Positions 7,020-58,435 of a DNA stretch of 64,000 nt are shown piece by piece (positions within the stretch are counted from its first letter, which is position 1; every line of letters begins with the position of its first letter). This DNA comes from Eledone cirrhosa (lineage: Eukaryota): assembly GCA_964016885.1 (NCBI GenBank), contig OZ024746.1, positions 54,250,001 to 54,314,000 of the forward strand. The letters are read 5' to 3'. A model generated the notes under the pieces. That model did no database searches. It was given only the letters and a program-made list of their open reading frames with translations, and was not told the DNA's origin. A program made the translations under genes and the position numbers.

Positions 7020-7060
7020 TTTCTTCTGATGAAGGACTAGCGTCCGAAACGTTATGACCC
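7020..7060 (+). ncRNA. Hammerhead ribozyme core (stem I degraded)
   Basis: CTGATGA-A-GGAC TAGC GTCC-GAAA-CGTTA; palindromic AACGTT in the stem III position; stem I pairing not convincing. Confidence 0.5.
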
Positions 7061-21367: not shown

Positions 21368-21623
21368 ATTATGTAATAAACAACATAAGGCAATTATTCC
21401 ATTTACCAGTGGTTTCTTAAAAGCAAAAGGTTTTGCTTTCAATCCTCAGAATGAAAAATCCTGGTTTGTTTATTGAATACGGATTCTAAAAACCTTTAGA
21501 ATCCGTATTCAATAAACAAACCAGGATTTTTCATTCTGAGGATTGAAAGCAAAACCTTTTGCTTTTAAGAAACCACTGGTAAATGGAATAATTGCCTTAT
21601 GTTGTTTATTACATAATAATAAT
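21362..21623. repeat. Perfect palindrome, 129-bp arms, 4-nt loop
   Basis: 21362-21490 is the reverse complement of 21495-21623; abuts (TA)n on the left. Confidence 0.9.
21530..21587 (+). ncRNA. Type I hammerhead ribozyme (mirror copy on - strand at 21398-21455)
   Basis: TTCATT CTGAGGA TTGAAAGCAAAA CC TTTTGCTTTTAA GAAA CC ACT GG TA AATGGA; all core nucleotides and three stems present. Confidence 0.85.
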
Positions 21624-22647: not shown

Positions 22648-23125
<478 letters not shown>

Positions 23126-23461
23126 ATGTTTATATATGTATGTGTATATATATATATATACATACATACATATAGATGACCCCTTAGCCTTTATCAAGGC
23201 AGAATTCTAAGAGAAGGAAAATTATGATATAACACCTGCAACCCTGATGGTATCCAATGATGTTGACTTGTTCTTCTTTTTGGTAAATATCATCTTGGTT
23301 AAGAGAGTGGGACTGGTTTGTGCAGTGCCTTTGCTCACTATAAAAGCTTCACGGCACAGGCATTGCTTTATATCTGGAGATCTCTCTGCACTTGTCATCA
23401 CATAGTGCCATGGGCTTCAGTTCTGCCGTCGGGGTCCTGAACCTTTTCCTATATATATATA

Positions 23462-37548: not shown

Positions 37549-37913
37549 AAAATAAAGTTAAATAAAAGTCAAATGATTAAAATTTAGCTTCGTTTATTAC
37601 TGCTATATATATTTCAGTGACAGCCATCTTTGGCTGTGACCTCTTCAGGCAGTTTGAATTAGTATGGTATAGACAAGTACATATGTTGTTTAGGTGTATG
37701 ATATTGTCAATACTCTGATATGCCCAACAAGGAACTGGGCATATCAGAGTATTGACAATATCATACACCTAAACAACATATGTACTTGTCTATACCATAC
37801 TAATTCAAACTGCCTGAAGAGGTCACAGCCAAAGATGGCTGTCACTGAAATATATATAGCAGTAATAAACGAAGCTAAATTTTAATCATTTAACTTTTAT
37901 TTAACTTTATTTT
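37549..37913. repeat. Near-perfect palindrome, 178-bp arms, 9-nt loop
   Basis: 37549-37726 is the reverse complement of 37736-37913; the two near-identical ORFs on opposite strands confirm the symmetry. Confidence 0.9.
37809..37863 (+). ncRNA. Minimal type I hammerhead ribozyme (mirror on - strand 37599-37653)
   Basis: ACTGC CTGAAGA GGTCACAGCCA AAGA TGGCTGTCACT GAAA TATATA TA GCAGT, followed by AATAAA. Confidence 0.85.
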
Positions 37914-39529: not shown

Positions 39530-39581
<52 letters not shown>

Positions 39582-39584
<3 letters not shown>

Positions 39585-40484
39585 GTATATATAGTCTATT
39601 TTGCAATACACTCTCTGCTTAATTAAAAGCATTTCGAAGACCTTACGCAATTGTTTTAGAGTAGTGACAGTCTCACTTCTTTAAATTTTCAGCAAACAGG
39701 GGAAATAAAGCTGACAGAACTCTGTTTCGTACTTTTTGGTACTTATCAAAGCTAACTACTCCACCTGTTTGCTGAAAATCATGAATGTTTGATTCTTATA
39801 GAATTCTAGTAATAATCAAGAACTGATTATACAGAGCGGTTGCCGGTCAAGCAGAAATTGAAAATTAGAATTGGTGCTCTGAAATATCGATATATATATG
39901 AATGTATATATAGTGTATTTTGCAATACACTGTATGCTTAAGTAAATACATTTCGAAGACCTTACGCTATTGTTTTAGAGTAGTGACAGTCTCACTTACT
40001 TTAAATGTTCTGCAAACAGGGGAGATAAAGCGGACAGAGCTCTGTTTTGTACTTTTTGGTACTTATCAAAACTAACTACTCCAACTGTTTGCTGAAAATT
40101 ATGAATGTTTGATTCTTATAGAATTCTAGTAATAATCAGGAACTGATTATACAGAGCGGTTGCCGGTCAAGCAGTAATTGAAAAATTAGAATTGGTGCTC
40201 TGAAATAGCGATATATATATGAATGTATATATAGTGCATTTTGCAATACACTGTTTGCTTAATTAAAAGCATTTCGAAGACCTTACGCTATTGTTTTAGA
40301 GTAGTGACAGTCTCACTTACTTTACATTTTCAGCAAATAGGGGAGATAAAGCTGACAGAGCTCTGTTTCATCCTTTTTGGTACTTATCAAAGCTAACTGC
40401 TCCACCTGTTTGCTGAAAATCATGAATATTTGATTCTTATAGAATTCTAGTAATAATCAGCGGCAACCGCTCTGTATAATCAGT
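39582..40484 (-). mobile_element. Tandem ~320-bp retrozyme-like array (~2.75 units)
   Basis: Units start at 39582, 39901 and 40222, each with a hammerhead motif; 3' end in (TA)n, 24-bp inverted piece at 40461-40484. Confidence 0.8.
39685..39779 (-). ncRNA. Type I hammerhead ribozyme, U3-A8 core variant, extended stem I (copies 40029-40073, 40350-40394 more mutated)
   Basis: AGCT TTGATAA GTAC CAAAAA GTAC GAAA CAGA GT TCTG TC AGCT, enclosed by ATTTTCAGCAAACAGG/CCTGTTTGCTGAAAAT. Confidence 0.8.
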
Positions 40485-44313: not shown

Positions 44314-44352
44314 TGAACCTGAAGATTGCGAAAGCATGAAAGTACTTGTTCA
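44314..44352 (+). ncRNA. Minimal type I hammerhead ribozyme in PLE 3' UTR
   Basis: TGAAC CTGAAGA TTGC GAAA GCAT GAAA GTAC TT GTTCA; palindromic AAGTACTT stem III typical of dimer-active PLE hammerheads. Confidence 0.85.
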
Positions 44353-48669: not shown

Positions 48670-49990
48670 ACAGTGGGAGTTTGGTTCTTATATCTACATC
48701 TGACGCGTGGAACATCGCCGGTAAGCATTTTTATTAATTTCTATACAAAAAACCGAACTAATTGTTTGAAAAAACATAACAGTTTGTAGATTAACCCCAA
48801 GCTGAATTGTCAGCTGGGTGGTAATCCCATTTTTCGCCCCTGTAGGGGCGAACATTTTATTTTTAAAATTTGTTTTAAAATATCACATTTTACAAACTAA
48901 ATAACTTGAGCAACACAAGAACGCTGGAGAACGTTAGTAGAGAAAAGAGAGAGAAAGAGGCAGACACTAACGTTATATCTGCTTCTGCTACTATGGACGT
49001 CGCCATAGATACGACTGTCAACGAAGAAAAAAAAAAGTATTACCACTTGAAGATTTTAAAATTTCTACCGTCGAATTGGAGAAAAATAACAGTAACACAC
49101 AGGAAAAAACAGGAATTAAACCCATTAACATACATACACATGAAAAAGACATCAACAACTCTACAGATATATCTACACATAATGTTTCACCTCGACAAGG
49201 AACTGAGATTTCCAACACAGAGCCTAACAACGATAACAACAACAACAACAGCAACACCACACAAAAAAAGAAAATGTCTTTCGCTGAAACAGTGAACAAA
49301 AAACAAGATTTTATAAATCTTGATATCTCCAACGCAAGAGATATGCTCCAGCAAGGGAAAAAAATGTGTAACTTTCGAAGAAAGAGGGGGTTTAGAATTA
49401 ATTCACCCCTTGAAATAAAGGAAGACACAATTCGCAGATCAGTCACCTTTAGGACTGTGTCAAATTCCAGAAGAAAGCCGACATTTGTTAACCAAGCAGA
49501 TATAGAAGATACTTTCAAGGAAATTCTAGCAAATGTCGATTTTCTCCAGCGAGGAAAACAGTACGGAAGTGTTTCCGTACTGTTTAAAAGCGAGGCACTC
49601 GCACAAAAACACCCCGTGACACCAATGGTGTCAAAAGCATACACCTTTTTCCCTACATACATGGGAAAAAGGACACAAAAATAAAAATAAAAAACATACC
49701 TCCAAACATTAAAATCTGGTGGATCTTGGCTGGCTTCGTAGAACCAGAAACTGATATGATACTTTCAATACGAAAATCTATTCGACAAAGGTGGGCGGGT
49801 ACAGATTTGGAAATTCTGTTGCAAATGAAACCGGAGAGAATCTCCAAAATACCCGAAAAACTCGTTATCGATAATAACAAAATAAACATTTCGGTAGAAG
49901 GACGAACATTTCGTTGCTTTCGCTGTGGTAGCACAGCACACCTAAAAGCCTCTTGTCCACAAACACACAACAACATCATTAAAAAAACAT
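48670..49990 (+). mobile_element. 5' part of a non-LTR retrotransposon: frameshifted gag-like ORF1 (L1/Tx1-like, tentative)
   Basis: ORFs 49076-49684 (SFAETV motif) and 49726-50052 with zinc knuckle CFRCGSTAHLKASCP. Confidence 0.6.
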
Positions 49991-50588
49991 CAGCCGTCGG
50001 GGTCTTACTTACTCCTATATATATATATATAAATATAAAGAAAAAAAGATGAAATCGAAAATGTAACTGGTGTCTTATTTTTTTTTAAATATATATATTT
50101 ATTTGGTTCCTTTACCGGTTTCGCAGTTCTTCTGCTTTTCAAAAGTAGAGTGGAGATGGAGGGTCTGTGGTTAAAAAAAAAGCCTTCGTGAGCCCCTTTT
50201 TTCAAGTAAAAAGAAATTCAAACACTCATATATGAAAAAACAACCTGTGACACCCCCCCCTCTTATTTGAAGAACTATTGTAACACGAACTGGCGCGAAA
50301 TTTATTATAATCATTGACCAACCAATCCAATTACTTCTTGAAAAACCTTGCATTTCGAGCCACTTTTTCCATATAAAACAAGTAACATTCAGAGACCAAC
50401 CAGATGTGAGAAAAACCACAGACCCTCCATCTCAACTCTACTTTTGAAAAGCAGAAGAACTGCGAAATCGGTAAAGGAACCAAATAAATATATATATTTA
50501 AAAAAAAATAAGACTCCAGTTGCATTTTCGATTTCATCTTTTTTTCTTTATACTTTCACTCGTGTAGGACACCTCGGTTATTTTTCAT

Positions 50589-50623
<35 letters not shown>

Positions 50624-50934
50624 CACTTTCTAATATATATATATCTATATATATATATAAATGAATAGAATGAAACGAAATTTCATTTCTCACTCTTAAT
50701 ACGGCACTTACTTAAAGGTAAGTATATATGTATACGTACATACATATATATATACAGACGTACAGTAGCATGTATATATATACATACAGGCACACATACA
50801 TATATGCACGTATCAGTTTACCGAACATTTATTATAATGCTCGGTTTGTTCGTTTGTAAACAAACAAACAGCCTGAATTACGCCGTACAGTGTTTAGCAA
50901 CCACGTCACCTTTTTGTTCAACACTGACACAGGA

Positions 50935-50977
50935 ACGATGTACTAGTTTCAAGCTTATTAGCTATCGTCAGCACCGT
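50935..50977 (-). ncRNA. Minimal type I hammerhead ribozyme
   Basis: ACGGTG CTGACGA TAGC TAATAA GCTT GAAA CTAG TA CATCGT; palindromic ACTAGT stem III. Confidence 0.85.
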
Positions 50978-51010
50978 ATACCTTTCTGCCAGATGGTTGA
51001 ACGTCCGAAG

Positions 51011-51058
51011 GTATATACTTCCTTATGAAAATTAACGGCTGAGCAGCCTAATTTGCAT
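51011..51058 (-). promoter_or_regulatory. Putative snRNA-type promoter cassette (octamer, PSE-like, TATA)
   Basis: Minus strand ATGCAAAT (51058-51051), CTCAGCCGTTAATTTTCATAAG (loose PSE match), TATATA (51017-51012), ~35 nt upstream of the ribozyme. Confidence 0.4.
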
Positions 51059-51207
51059 ATCGAGTGAGTTCAGTCGGCCAGGCGCACCGAAAACGATAAA
51101 TGGAATAGAATGAAATGAAATTTCATTTCTCACTCTTAGTACGGCACTTACTTAAATGTAAGTATGTATGTATACGTACATACATATATGTATACAGACG
51201 TACAGTA

Positions 51208-51261
<54 letters not shown>

Positions 51262-52241
51262 GCACACATACATATATGCACGTATCAGTTTACCGAACAT
51301 TTATTATAATACTCGGTTTGTTCGTTTGTAAACAAACAAACAGCCTGAATTACGCCGTACAGACAAACAGCTTGCGGTAGTAAAAAAATAAATAAAATAA
51401 ACCGAAGATCGAAAAACAAAAACAAGTATATTTACTTAGGTGTCACAAGCGGTTCTGACCATGTAATTTCATTAATATATGTCTGTATGTCAACCACGTT
51501 AATATATTTTGTAATATTTTGGGATATTTTGGTAATATTTATGCCAACGTAAAATGACTTGACCTCCGTGTATTTGTTACAATGGTATAGACATTTTTTC
51601 AATACAATTTTTTCAACACAATTTAGTTCTATATGATTTTTTTCTTACCCTGTGTAAAACTTTATACTATTTGTTAACCTTGAATTATATGTATGATGTA
51701 ATTTTGTATATCTTTTGATGCCAATATATTATAATATTGTTATTATAATGTTATTATAATGTTTCTATATTGTTTATGCACACTGACAGGGAATTATATA
51801 TTACATTTATTTTTATTTTTATCTTTATTCTTATTTTTATCTTTATTATATTATACTGTAAACAATATATATATATTTAAATACTTAATAAGTGTTAGTT
51901 TGTATTTGTACTAATGTGTATATGTATATATATATATATATATATACATACATTAAGCTTTTTATTATCACCATCTATCATATTATATTATATTCTATAT
52001 CGTACTGTAATTCTCGCATTATATTACCATTTGTGTTTCAAGTTTTTGCATTATACAATATTTGCAATGTGGGTTCAGCATGTTAATCACTTCCTTGCTA
52101 TTTGGTCCATATCAATGTTTGTAACTGCTCACTCTTAATCTTAGCTAACTTTTCCTCGATATATTTCCTGAGCTTTAGTAGATGTATACTCCATATTCTT
52201 CTGAGTTTTTGGCTTGTATTGGCCGATAGTGCTTCTTGTAG

Positions 52242-52295
52242 CTTTACTTGCCCTGATGAGTCCTTAATAGGACGAAACATTGTTGGCTAATAAAG
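52242..52295 (+). ncRNA. Type I hammerhead ribozyme
   Basis: CTTTA CTT GCC CTGATGA GTCCT TAAT AGGAC GAAA C ATT G TT GGC TAA TAAAG; overlaps AATAAA; (TA)n ~55 nt downstream. Confidence 0.85.
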
Positions 52296-52345
52296 ACTTT
52301 TGATGTATTGAAGGCTTCTTTGGTTTATTTTTTATAATTTTTATA

Positions 52346-54171: not shown

Positions 54172-54360
54172 TTGAAACAAAATGAAAACGAAATTTCATT
54201 TCTCACTCTTAGTATGGCACTTACTTAAATGTAAGTATGCATGTATACGTACATACATATATGTATACAGACGTACAGTAGCATGCACATATATATATAT
54301 ATATATACATATATACATACATATGCATACAGGTACACATACATATATGCACGTATCAGT
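54172..54360 (-). mobile_element. Family B 3' fragment
   Basis: AATGAAAACGAAATTTCATTTCTCACTCTTAGTATGGCACTTACTTAAATGTAAG.. next to (TA)n. Confidence 0.75.
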
Positions 54361-54906: not shown

Positions 54907-57900
54907 TTCTTTGAGTCTCAGTCATTGAGGTTATTTAACTCGAAAGTTTGTTGAAATGAATATCAAGCCAGTATCTGCAACCTCAGACATTCAGGACGTA
55001 TCCGAGGGTTCTTGTTGTTCCCAGCAAGCATGCCTTTTGAAGTGTTCATAAAAACGGGGCTGGACTAATCTTCTATAACCATCGTTGGAAAATCTTTGAG
55101 ATTGTACCTAGAGCGCCTATGACAATCGGGATGACCTTGATTTCATGGCAGTTCCAAATCCTTTTAAACTCCCACTTTAAATCCTAGTATCAGTTAATTT
55201 TCTCCCTCTTCTTTGTCAAATGGGCAGGCTACATCTACAATCAGGCATGATCTGTTTTCCTTGTCCAAAACCACGAGATCAGGCCTAATGTGTTCTAATT
55301 TCTTGTCCGTCTGTATCCTAAAATCCCATAGCACCTTCACCTGATCGTTTTCTATCACCGACTCTGGCTTATGCTCATACCACTTCTCAGAATGTGGTAA
55401 ATTGTTTAGTTTGCATAGATGCCAGTGGATCACCCTGCCTATCACATCATGGCTCCAACCTTTATAGTGAGTCTGAGCTAGGTGATTACACTCGGATACA
55501 ATGTGAGCCACAGTCTCCCCTCTTTCTCCACAGATCCTACACAGTTAGCTAGCCTCCTCCTTGTCAATATGGTGTTTCACCCACTTCATTATGAGGGCTT
55601 GCTCTTACGCAGCCATTAGCATTCCTTCTGTAGCTTTTTTAAGGTCTCCTCTTTTTAACCAGTTCCTTGTCTGTGGATCTCTAAATTCCGTTTTCTTAAA
55701 GAAGGTTCTATGAAGGGATATTTCATGAAGATTGCCCTTCCTCCTTGTTATTTCCTCCTTCGACATCCCCTGGTCTATTGTCTTCAGTACAATTTTGAGC
55801 ATTGGCTCCCTAATGTCAGCCACATATTTGTGTAGGTTGTTTTTCTCCATCTGAACACAGTCCTCTATACTGATAGGACCTCTTCCACCTTCAGATCTCT
55901 TTAAGTAGAATCTATCAACCTCACTCCTCTTGTGGAACATGTTGTAGATAGTCAATAGCTTCTTAGTTTTCCTATCCATTTCTTTTTGTTCAGCAACATT
56001 CCATTTCATAATCCCCGCACTGTACCTAATAATAGACACAGCTCGGCAATTTGCTGCACTTATGACATTCCTACTATTTAGATGTGATTTTAGTTTGTTC
56101 CTTAGACTCCCTATGTATTCAGATCTTATAAATTCCTTCATTTTATTTTGTTCTTGATGTCATCTGCCTCCAGAACACCTAAATATTTGTATCCCTCTTC
56201 AGTGTCAATTTCCTTTATCATCTCACCTGTTGGTACATGGATTCCGCTGCTTCTGCTCAATTTAACCCCCCCCCCCCTCCTCATCACTAGGACTCCACAC
56301 TTATTAACACAGAATTGCATACATATATCATTGCTGAAAATACGGACAGTGTCAACAAGCACATCCAACTCCTCACTCTTAACAAAGAGTTTAAGATCGT
56401 CCATGAAGAGGAGGTGGTTGATGGGAAGCTCTCCTCTTCCCAACTTGTATCCTGCTCTCACTTTTCGCAATATGACGGACAGGGCTATCAGGGAAAGGAC
56501 AAACAACAAAGGGGACAAACTATTTCCCTGGAAGATACCTCTCTTGATCTTCACGCCTCCCAAGGATTCTCCACCTGATGTTAACTCTGTTTCCCAGGAC
56601 TTCATACTTTTGCTTAATAACTCTCTGATGTTATCTACCACCTTGAAGATCTCTAGGCTTTTGGTTATCCAGGAATGAGGTACCATGTCGAATACCTTTT
56701 TGTAATCTATCCATCCCATGGCAAGACCAGTGTGCCTCCTCTTGAAATTCCTCATTACCATCTTATCAATAACTAACTGGTATTTTGTACAACGGGATTT
56801 CTTTCGGCGTCCTTTCTGTTCGTCCGGTAACAAGTTGTTTATGTGGAGGTGATAGTAGATTTCCTCAGACACAATGCTTGTTAACAGTTTCCACATTACG
56901 GACAGACAGGCCTATAGTTGGTAACATCCCTACCCTTGATTCGGTCTTTCATTACTAGAACTCTGGTACCTTTTGTCAACCACTCTGGTACTTCACCCGA
57001 CATCAAGCAGTCATTGAACATGCTTGTCAGTTTTGGGTGGAGGGATGTTATATTTTTAATCCAATACCCTTGCACACCATCTGGGCCAGGTGATTTCCAG
57101 TTGGTTAGCTTTTTGGCCTGACCTTTAAGAATTTCAGCTGTGATACTCAAATCAGGTTGTTGGTGTGCTTGTTCACTAATCTCCTTTTGAACTGTCTCAA
57201 TCCACACTGCATGACTATTATGTTCAACATCCTGCTCCCATATTCCTCTCCAGAATGTCTTAGTCTGTTCCGCCTCAGGGATCACGTCGTTGCTTCTATC
57301 TTTCCCTTCAAGCTGTTCAAACATCTTCTGGTTGTTGTCAAACATGCGGTTCTGTCTATACTGACTGACTCTGTTCTCATACCGCCTAATCTTTGCACTT
57401 TTTACTACAATGCGTTGCTTCAGTTCTTCTATGATAACATTTAGCTCTTTTCCACTAGTTTTGTATTTTATTTTCAATCTATCTTTATTGTCTGTTTTGC
57501 AATGTCCCATTCAGTAAAGACTCAAGCTTTTCAATGTATTTGCTCATTTCCTTGATTTGACCATTCAGTCGTTTCTTCCACCAAGGTTCTGATCTTTCTT
57601 GTTTGTTGTTTATTCTCCTTTCTAGGCCAAGTAATTTTTTCACCGCATTTGCGGTTGCTTTCAGGATATTGTTGCATTGGTGAAGGTTCCTCGCCTCAAG
57701 GTATGGGATGACCTTGTTTACCTTAGCTGTTGTTTCCTGTCTACAAATCTTAGATTCATAGGTTTTCCACTATCATTGTTCATTTCATCTACCACTAAGT
57801 TCAGGATATCAACAAAATCTTGCCCTAGGCCGTCAGCATTCATTTCCTCAATGGCCGTATCTTTGTTCCTGATGTTATTTATTTCAGGATTCAGATCATT

Positions 57901-58435
57901 GTCTGCTCCGGATGCTTCCCCTGTCTCTCAACTCCTTCACCTTCATTTGCCACTGGGTCATTTGCCTGATATACTCCACTCTCCATTACCAACTTAATCT
58001 CTCTGATCAGTTCCTCCAGTTCCAACTCGATTATCCATCCATTAGTTCTTATTACACGAGCCTGTCCGGCCAATTTTTGTTCACCTAATTTAACTAGACC
58101 AATCTCGTTCCGAATGTTATGCATCCGTTTCCTATACTCTTCAGGTAACATTTCATGACAGTTCTATTCAATTCTTTCGTCCAGTTGGTTCTTGTCCCAT
58201 TCCTTCTTCTTCCTCCAACACCAGCAGTATTTGGATGACAGCCAGGTCCCTGCTGCTGGGCCAGGGAACACTTGCTGGGTGAGTCTTTCACATGACGTTC
58301 CAGTCTCCTTTTCACCGTTATTCTAACTCTTTAGGTTCGACATTTAAACACTCATATCGAGGATTGGTGAATTTATGGTTACACCACCACCAGTGTTTTT
58401 TTGTGTGGCACCATCACGTTGTAGACGAAAATAAA
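54907..58435 (-). mobile_element. Near full-length, inactivated R4/Dong-clade non-LTR retrotransposon
   Basis: Consecutive broken ORFs: WTKELN..CY, WKSPGPDGVQGYWIK, NYRPV, WIDYKKVFDMVPH, GIFQGNSLSPLLF, HLLFMDDLKLF, YKYLG, CRIC..HIVSEC, RPDLVV; (TAA)n tail. Confidence 0.92.

Follow-up and report, generated by a model that had tools for sequence, protein, structure and literature searches.

The window, as we call the whole stretch of 64,000 nucleotides that was analysed, carries on its minus strand a copy of a non-LTR retrozyme that probably brings its own host-type small nuclear RNA (snRNA) promoter with it. In the reading that we favour and consider reasonably likely, the element would be transcribed by RNA polymerase II (Pol II) from position 50987, cut and circularised in tandem form, and re-inserted by the reverse transcriptase (RT) and endonuclease (EN) of Penelope-like elements (PLEs). 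The preliminary description of this DNA had proposed a non-coding hammerhead retroelement, and the insertion is indeed a copy of a non-LTR retrozyme family, a class that had already been named.

The whole insertion (50658..51362, minus strand) consists of a 5′-truncated partial unit followed by one full unit and ends in TTTA joined to (TA)n. A TA-rich target tract (50632..50657) lies at its 3′ end, and a terminal hairpin (50669..50687, minus strand) is found just before this main 3′ junction. The full unit (50663..51102, minus strand) belongs to family A and is 97.5% identical to the 442-nt unit of locus L008, so that, judging by its sequence, the window copy is best read as a recent product. 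The repeat described earlier as 439 nt long is present, with a unit length of 440 nt when measured by repeat spacing. The upstream partial unit (51103..51362, minus strand) corresponds to unit positions 215–442 and has neither promoter nor hammerhead. As it contains a TA expansion, the earlier count of 1.6 tandem units is correct by length and falls to about 1.5 units by sequence. The unit body has a GC content of about 33%, and there is no LTR and no protein-coding frame, in agreement with what had been stated before: the sole frame is of low complexity, extends over 119 codons from stop to stop on the plus strand, and was judged not credible. No RT plus GIY-YIG open reading frame was found in or beside the unit, and the subfamilies differ by indels. 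A U1-like 10-mer, ATACTTACCT (50722-50713), was rejected as a candidate feature, being a window-specific variant that is missing from the L008 unit.

Other repeats are also present in the window. Two family A fragments (1250-1643, an inverted pair, and 54181-54321) carry neither promoter nor hammerhead. A 142-nt inverted repeat (50031-50172 and 50414-50555), 96% complementary and with 241 nt between its arms, is MITE-like or an inverted tail. Two overlapping plus-strand frames at 48971-50052, the second with a CCHC zinc knuckle, resemble a broken LINE ORF1 and gave no Pfam match, and broken non-LTR reverse transcriptase frames lie at 55194-58163 on the minus strand. Tandem repeats with periods of 321 (2.8 copies, 39571-40460) and 188 (2.2 copies, 22708-23128) did not match the hammerhead pattern.

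The elements of an snRNA-type promoter precede the hammerhead of the full unit on the minus strand. The perfect octamer noted before, ATGCAAAT, was found at 51058-51051 within an extended octamer, TATGCAAATTAG (51048..51059), a motif that also occurs at -77..-80 of the host U6, U6atac, MRP and tRNA-Sec genes. A loose PSE-like stretch had been proposed without exact coordinates; the portion of it that proved to be conserved is the core TCAGC (YCAGY, 51042-51038), as at -55..-58 of the host U1, U2, U4, U5 and U12 genes. The TATATA ahead of the hammerhead was recovered at 51017-51012, 25 nt after the core, and transcription is predicted to start at a C|A step at 50987 (unit position 117), 30 nt after the TATA box. 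RNA folding also predicts a hairpin (51023..51059, minus strand) in which the octamer is paired with a downstream arm. The hairpin in which the TATA box had been said to lie, TATACCTT/AAGGTATA, exists in the window; its perfect form is private to one copy among 29 distinct family cassettes, and this hairpin was rejected as the cause of the conservation.

The host loci compared were those of U6, U6atac, MRP, RNase P, 7SK, tRNA-Sec, U1, U2, U4, U5, U11 and U12, and the octamer, the YCAGY core and the TATA box of the element all match their promoters. The counts rest on nine Pol III and 16 Pol II loci, with pseudogene-like and near-identical array copies excluded; the U6atac loci L054-L056, which look like promoterless pseudogenes, were left out in this way. 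The motif TATGSWAATNAG was present at -77 to -80 in seven of the nine Pol III loci and in none of the 16 Pol II loci. YCAGY at -55 to -58 was found in 14 of the 16 Pol II loci, not in U11, and in those 14 the distance from core to TATA is 23-29 nt; among the Pol III genes it is 33 nt in 7SK and 32 nt in RNase P. With a core-to-TATA distance of 24-27 nt, the elements fall within the Pol II-type range and outside the Pol III spacing of 32-33 nt. On the evidence of motif and spacing, the cassette is a hybrid of an octamer of the host Pol III-gene type with a PSE core and TATA box at Pol II spacing, and it is a well-supported host-type snRNA promoter, probably read by Pol II. As its elements match host snRNA promoters, the repeat likely transcribes itself. 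In insects, sequence and spacing determine the choice of polymerase (PMC1761439), and we infer by analogy that this spacing rule applies to the elements described here. When scored with a profile of the host Pol II promoters, lineages C, E and G reached 14-21, like true host genes; the window copy scored a moderate 3.2 (top 0.4%), one family A copy 0.05, and lineages B and F were at background. The AATTAA element near -90 of the host Pol II genes was not conserved in the elements.

Pol III offers another reading of the same cassette, namely U6-like transcription terminating in the T-rich junction, where occasional read-through would give the promoter-bearing templates. We regard it as unlikely. 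Among host genes the octamer occurs only in those of Pol III, the combination of PSE and TATA directs human genes to Pol III (PMC6004067), and one main 3′ junction sits in a T-rich tract. Few T4 runs precede that junction in the unit bodies, which gives them a Pol III-like look (in A, C and D there are none, but one to three A4 runs). However, the host Pol II snRNA genes have a TATA box too, the distance from octamer to TATA is 41-44 nt in the elements versus 47-49 nt in the host Pol III genes, and the core-to-TATA spacing is Pol II-like. The avoidance of T4 was rejected as proof of Pol III; it is a weak sign, broken by one B subfamily with an internal T5.

Regarding the host itself, the comparison (loci L031-L033, L053, L057, L301, L302, L305 and L058 versus L043-L045, L096-L105 and L292-L300) outlines a promoter grammar in which Pol II genes have AATTAA near -90, YCAGY near -57 and TATA, and Pol III genes have an octamer near -78 or a core 32-33 nt before TATA. 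In the U6 array copies L037 and L042 (contig C19), unrelated sequence has taken the place of the upstream element immediately ahead of the TATA box.

A 251-nt query yielded 2,202 candidates in the 3.0 Gb genome, of which the 40 that were scored are 98-100% identical, and the family A hammerhead core has 24,251 exact matches. On its own, the octamer is frequent, with 95 occurrences in 800 kb. A pattern made of the octamer and any hammerhead 60-90 nt later, i.e., at matching spacing, had 26,525 matches in the genome and none in the reversed-pattern control. Counted by such matches, the window repeat belongs to a set of tens of thousands of copies. Besides family A, the lineages include B (arrays of 466-469 nt units), C (443 nt), D and others; BLAST revealed no similarity among lineages A-D, and 87 distinct cassette segments were divided into eight groups below 70% identity. 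The window copy has a single hammerhead, other family loci have more, and arrays occur, e.g., 14 units in block C3a. At L002 and L011, one tandem insertion mixes young (97-99%) and old (87-88%) subfamily units, which would reflect either a template switch or an insertion event within an older copy.

The promoter motifs are kept within family A and across lineages that are only 45-70% alike. Motifs that vary among copies and differ from host snRNA promoters would have spoken against the earlier proposal, and neither was the case. Among 43 distinct family A copies, variation amounts to 1.1% in the octamer and 1.2% in the TATA box versus 2.6-6.7% elsewhere outside the ribozyme. Likewise, no variant was listed in the octamer and TATA blocks in four runs of three organisms (Fisher p 0.04), these runs being contigs of unknown kind whose depth is uninformative on expression. 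Low-depth cover in organisms B and C gave only a hint of relatives. In lineages B-I the conservation of the octamer is a product of how the copies were chosen, because the octamer belonged to the search pattern there; the positions of the core and the TATA box were not fixed by that pattern. Across the eight lineages below 70% identity, a YCASY core at offset 16-18 was found in six (shuffle mean 0.13, maximum 3 in 2000) and a TATA-like box, under a pattern widened after a first look at the data, also in six (shuffle mean 0.71, maximum 5). The full layout of octamer, YCASY core 17 nt on and TATA 24-27 nt past the core is seen in nine of 11 element representatives, and a TATA match is absent in the other two. 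In lineage C (L069, L090-L092), three octamer-like repeats about 33 nt apart lie upstream of the core.

For each of the 11 element representatives, a hairpin is predicted in the octamer region (z from -0.1 to -4.3), with other sequences doing the pairing, and no such hairpin is predicted in six of seven host promoters. A hairpin in the elements and hardly in the host promoters is expected if the promoter region travels in RNA. It would also be compatible with motifs that serve RNA structure or the binding of protein in the circle and not as a promoter, the RNA itself being supplied by read-through from neighbouring genes or elements, and the strong folding of the whole unit (z -6.8) points the same way. 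This explanation seems to us very improbable: the pairing arm varies between lineages while the motif stays host-like, the core, TATA and C|A start retain host spacing, and there is an excess of 5′ ends at the predicted +1.

That excess comes from genomic copies. The start at TATA + 30 had been predicted before the genomic 5′ ends were examined, and the C|A start position agrees to within 1-2 nt among lineages A, B and C. In 160 copies (TA)n is joined to a 5′ end that lies a short way upstream of the hammerhead; among the 100 of these listed and tallied by eye, 12 joins fall exactly at +1 (50987), 11 of them independent, while five comparable single-base joins hold 4, 3, 2, 5 and 2 ends. The join with the most ends (17) is at a site of 4-nt microhomology. 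The Poisson probability of the +1 excess is between 0.0005 and 0.014. At the cut site, a tally by eye of 100 listed copies out of 198 revealed no excess of 5′ ends (9 versus 6, 8 and 6). Four of the 11 independent copies starting at +1 continue past T6-T7 plus T4 into the next unit, and coverage along the unit, in 864 kb of unselected DNA, rises smoothly, neither +1 nor the cut site being marked by a step; most templates therefore contained the promoter. Both the crossing of the T runs and the smooth coverage at +1 argue further against transcription by Pol III, and they agree with a Pol II transcript that begins at 50987 and reads through.

The ribozyme that such a transcript would contain is a type I minimal hammerhead (50935..50977, minus strand), whose predicted cleavage point, between 50941 and 50940, lies 47 nt after the predicted start. 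Helix I (ACGGTG/CATCGT) has 6 bp, and the core nucleotides are CUGACGA and GAAA; helix II has 4 bp with a closing U-U mismatch, helix III has 2 bp and a palindromic loop, and the cleavage triplet is GUA. Rfam gave no match at gathering anywhere in the window and none to this hammerhead at E<=10, and the Rfam miRNA matches in the window were dismissed as TA-repeat noise. The hammerhead had been called complete, which is valid for its core nucleotides only, since the monomer is predicted by RNA folding to misfold and the stand-alone active fold is not obtained. A double-hammerhead fold reaches -16.2 kcal/mol and is not the predicted minimum (-20.8). Such hammerheads are described as acting as dimers (PMC4209133). 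Across lineages, the hammerhead stems vary in sequence but still pair, and the helix III palindromes differ.

It is conceivable, and in our view unlikely, that the promoter is real and the family A hammerhead slow or dead, the templates being uncut array multimers and not circles. The predicted misfolding of the monomer, the U-U closing pair and the GUA triplet would fit, as would the lack of an end excess at the cut site and the copies that start exactly at +1. Moreover, a preprint reports cleavage in vitro for only one of nine Xenopus dimers (bioRxiv 10.64898/2026.07.22.740005). Tandem units differ equally within insertions (70 in 4,382 sites) and between them (1.2%), so that shared variants are uninformative on circle versus multimer and failed to separate the models. 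On the other hand, the family A core is conserved (2.3% variation) and the stems compensate across lineages, cleavage is reported for an axolotl hammerhead that shares the U-U pair, and is better in the dimer (PMC7229834, section 15), and a single end stops at +1 whereas some 48 units cover this position; short linear templates would leave more such ends.

Other hammerhead-like motifs in the window lack the octamer cassette (52237-52307, 7026-7049 and 44319-44341, all on the plus strand). The first scored 28.5 bits on Rfam HH9, which is under gathering, and the last is the same motif that was found downstream of PLE frames in L143 and L149. Head-to-head inverted pairs with hammerhead-like motifs (21413-21572 and 37612-37850) are as expected of inverted PLE ends.

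The 3′ ends of the units lie at two spots, at the TTTA just past the terminal hairpin and at unit positions 386-392, nearly always joined into (TA)n, and the 5′ ends are truncated at numerous positions, often abutting an inverted copy. Partial tandems and inverted 5′-truncated copies are the architecture described for PLEs (bioRxiv 10.1101/2021.04.23.441226), and by their (TA)n targets, partial tandems and inverted tails the insertions look as if made by Penelope machinery. The genome holds 10,595 GIY-YIG candidates, of which 150 were scored, and it has long frames with RT plus GIY-YIG (up to 938 codons) that carry the cysteine motif of the Neptune type, a clade label that follows bioRxiv 10.1101/2021.04.23.441226; thus, autonomous PLEs share the genome with retrozyme units whose insertions are of the PLE type. 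A PLE parent with the same cassette was sought in 42 PLE-bearing loci and rejected, as no cassette preceded the PLE hammerheads and no sequence was shared with the units, except for inserted retrozyme copies. Past the PLE frame of L143 and L149, the PLE hammerhead is preceded, at a distance of about 80 nt, by two CCAAT-like boxes and TATAAAA; this is an mRNA-type promoter in a position equivalent to that of the retrozyme cassette.

Taken together, the favoured cycle by Pol II, circle and PLE enzymes would run as follows. The octamer, the YCAGY core and the TATA box, which resemble those of host snRNA genes and have a Pol II-type core-to-TATA spacing, would direct an RNA that begins 30 nt after TATA, as the genomic 5′ ends suggest. 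In arrays, the polymerase would pass the T-rich junction into the next unit, and this read-through would include the next promoter in the RNA. Two hammerheads would then pair via the palindromic helix III and cut, and the product would be a unit-length RNA containing the promoter and closed by a host ligase. Copying, as the DNA junctions indicate, begins at UUUA sites, with nicked (TA)n as the primer and presumably by a PLE enzyme, and yields partial tandems and inverted 5′-truncated tails. The earlier proposal that the tandem layout copies the promoter into the next monomer does not apply to the 1.6-mer of the window and would hold only for arrays with at least two hammerheads: with a partial unit upstream, one hammerhead and no downstream unit, the window copy is unable to rebuild, in cis, a monomer that bears the promoter. 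It is a one-hammerhead product that could still fire.

Whether a radiation of animal retrozymes, with at least eight lineages and more than 26,000 copies, built a hybrid promoter from a U6-type octamer and a U1/U2-type core and carries it as a hairpin in circular RNA is, in our estimate, evenly balanced. If so, each circle would encode its own promoter. Newt satellite 2 would have an invertebrate counterpart that arose by convergence, and the high transcription of retrozymes a general explanation; the texts covered describe the circular RNAs of animal retrozymes as highly expressed and give promoters only for newts and schistosomes. A non-coding parasite would then be using the host snRNA machinery at scale, with the octamer, core, TATA and +1 as exact, mutable positions for self-transcription. 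As a by-product, the analysis yielded a host promoter rule (core-to-TATA of about 25 nt for Pol II versus about 33 nt for Pol III) together with mapped, usable U6 promoters.

Among known systems, the closest class is that of the non-LTR retrozymes of animals, described together with their circles in coral, mussel and axolotl by work that considers PLEs their likely helpers (Cervera and de la Pena 2020, PMC7229834), and derived from PLEs in a 2026 preprint (Li et al., 10.64898/2026.07.22.740005). They share with the present family the type I hammerhead, low-GC tandem units of 150-450 bp, the absence of ORF and LTR, the co-occurrence with PLEs and the presence of both dispersed and arrayed copies. 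The difference lies in the host-type snRNA promoter found here across at least eight lineages and in the start site seen in genomic 5′ ends. In the portions covered, PMC7229834 does not mention an octamer and has "promoter" only as T7, and 10.64898/2026.07.22.740005 does not mention a promoter; the word is likewise unmentioned in PMC6155905 and PMC2837043. A literature search that covered mostly open-access main texts found no report of an snRNA-type promoter in an invertebrate retrozyme.

The pseudo-LTRs of Neptune-clade PLEs also have a minimal hammerhead behind a promoter, partial tandems, inverted 5′-truncated copies and (TA)n targets; in contrast to these PLEs, the units described here have no RT/EN frame. 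The Schistosoma Sm-alpha and Sj-alpha repeats are of tRNA-type origin. They are reported, second-hand, to be transcribed by Pol III (PMC2220036, PMC6765202), and they too have a promoter followed by a hammerhead and need tandem copies to keep the promoter (PMC6765202). The present elements differ from them in having gene-external snRNA-type elements at Pol II spacing. Newt satellite 2 has an octamer/PSE layout. It contains an internal snRNA-type promoter used by Pol II, as reported second-hand in PMC2220036 and PMC6765202, and in newts and salamanders its hammerhead, with a weak palindromic helix III, works as a dimer. The unit in the window likewise has snRNA-type promoter elements inside it and, by layout and promoter type, appears to parallel satellite 2, with the differences that its host promoter grammar is of a non-vertebrate type with a TATA box and that its octamer, of host Pol III-gene origin, stands 17 nt from the core.
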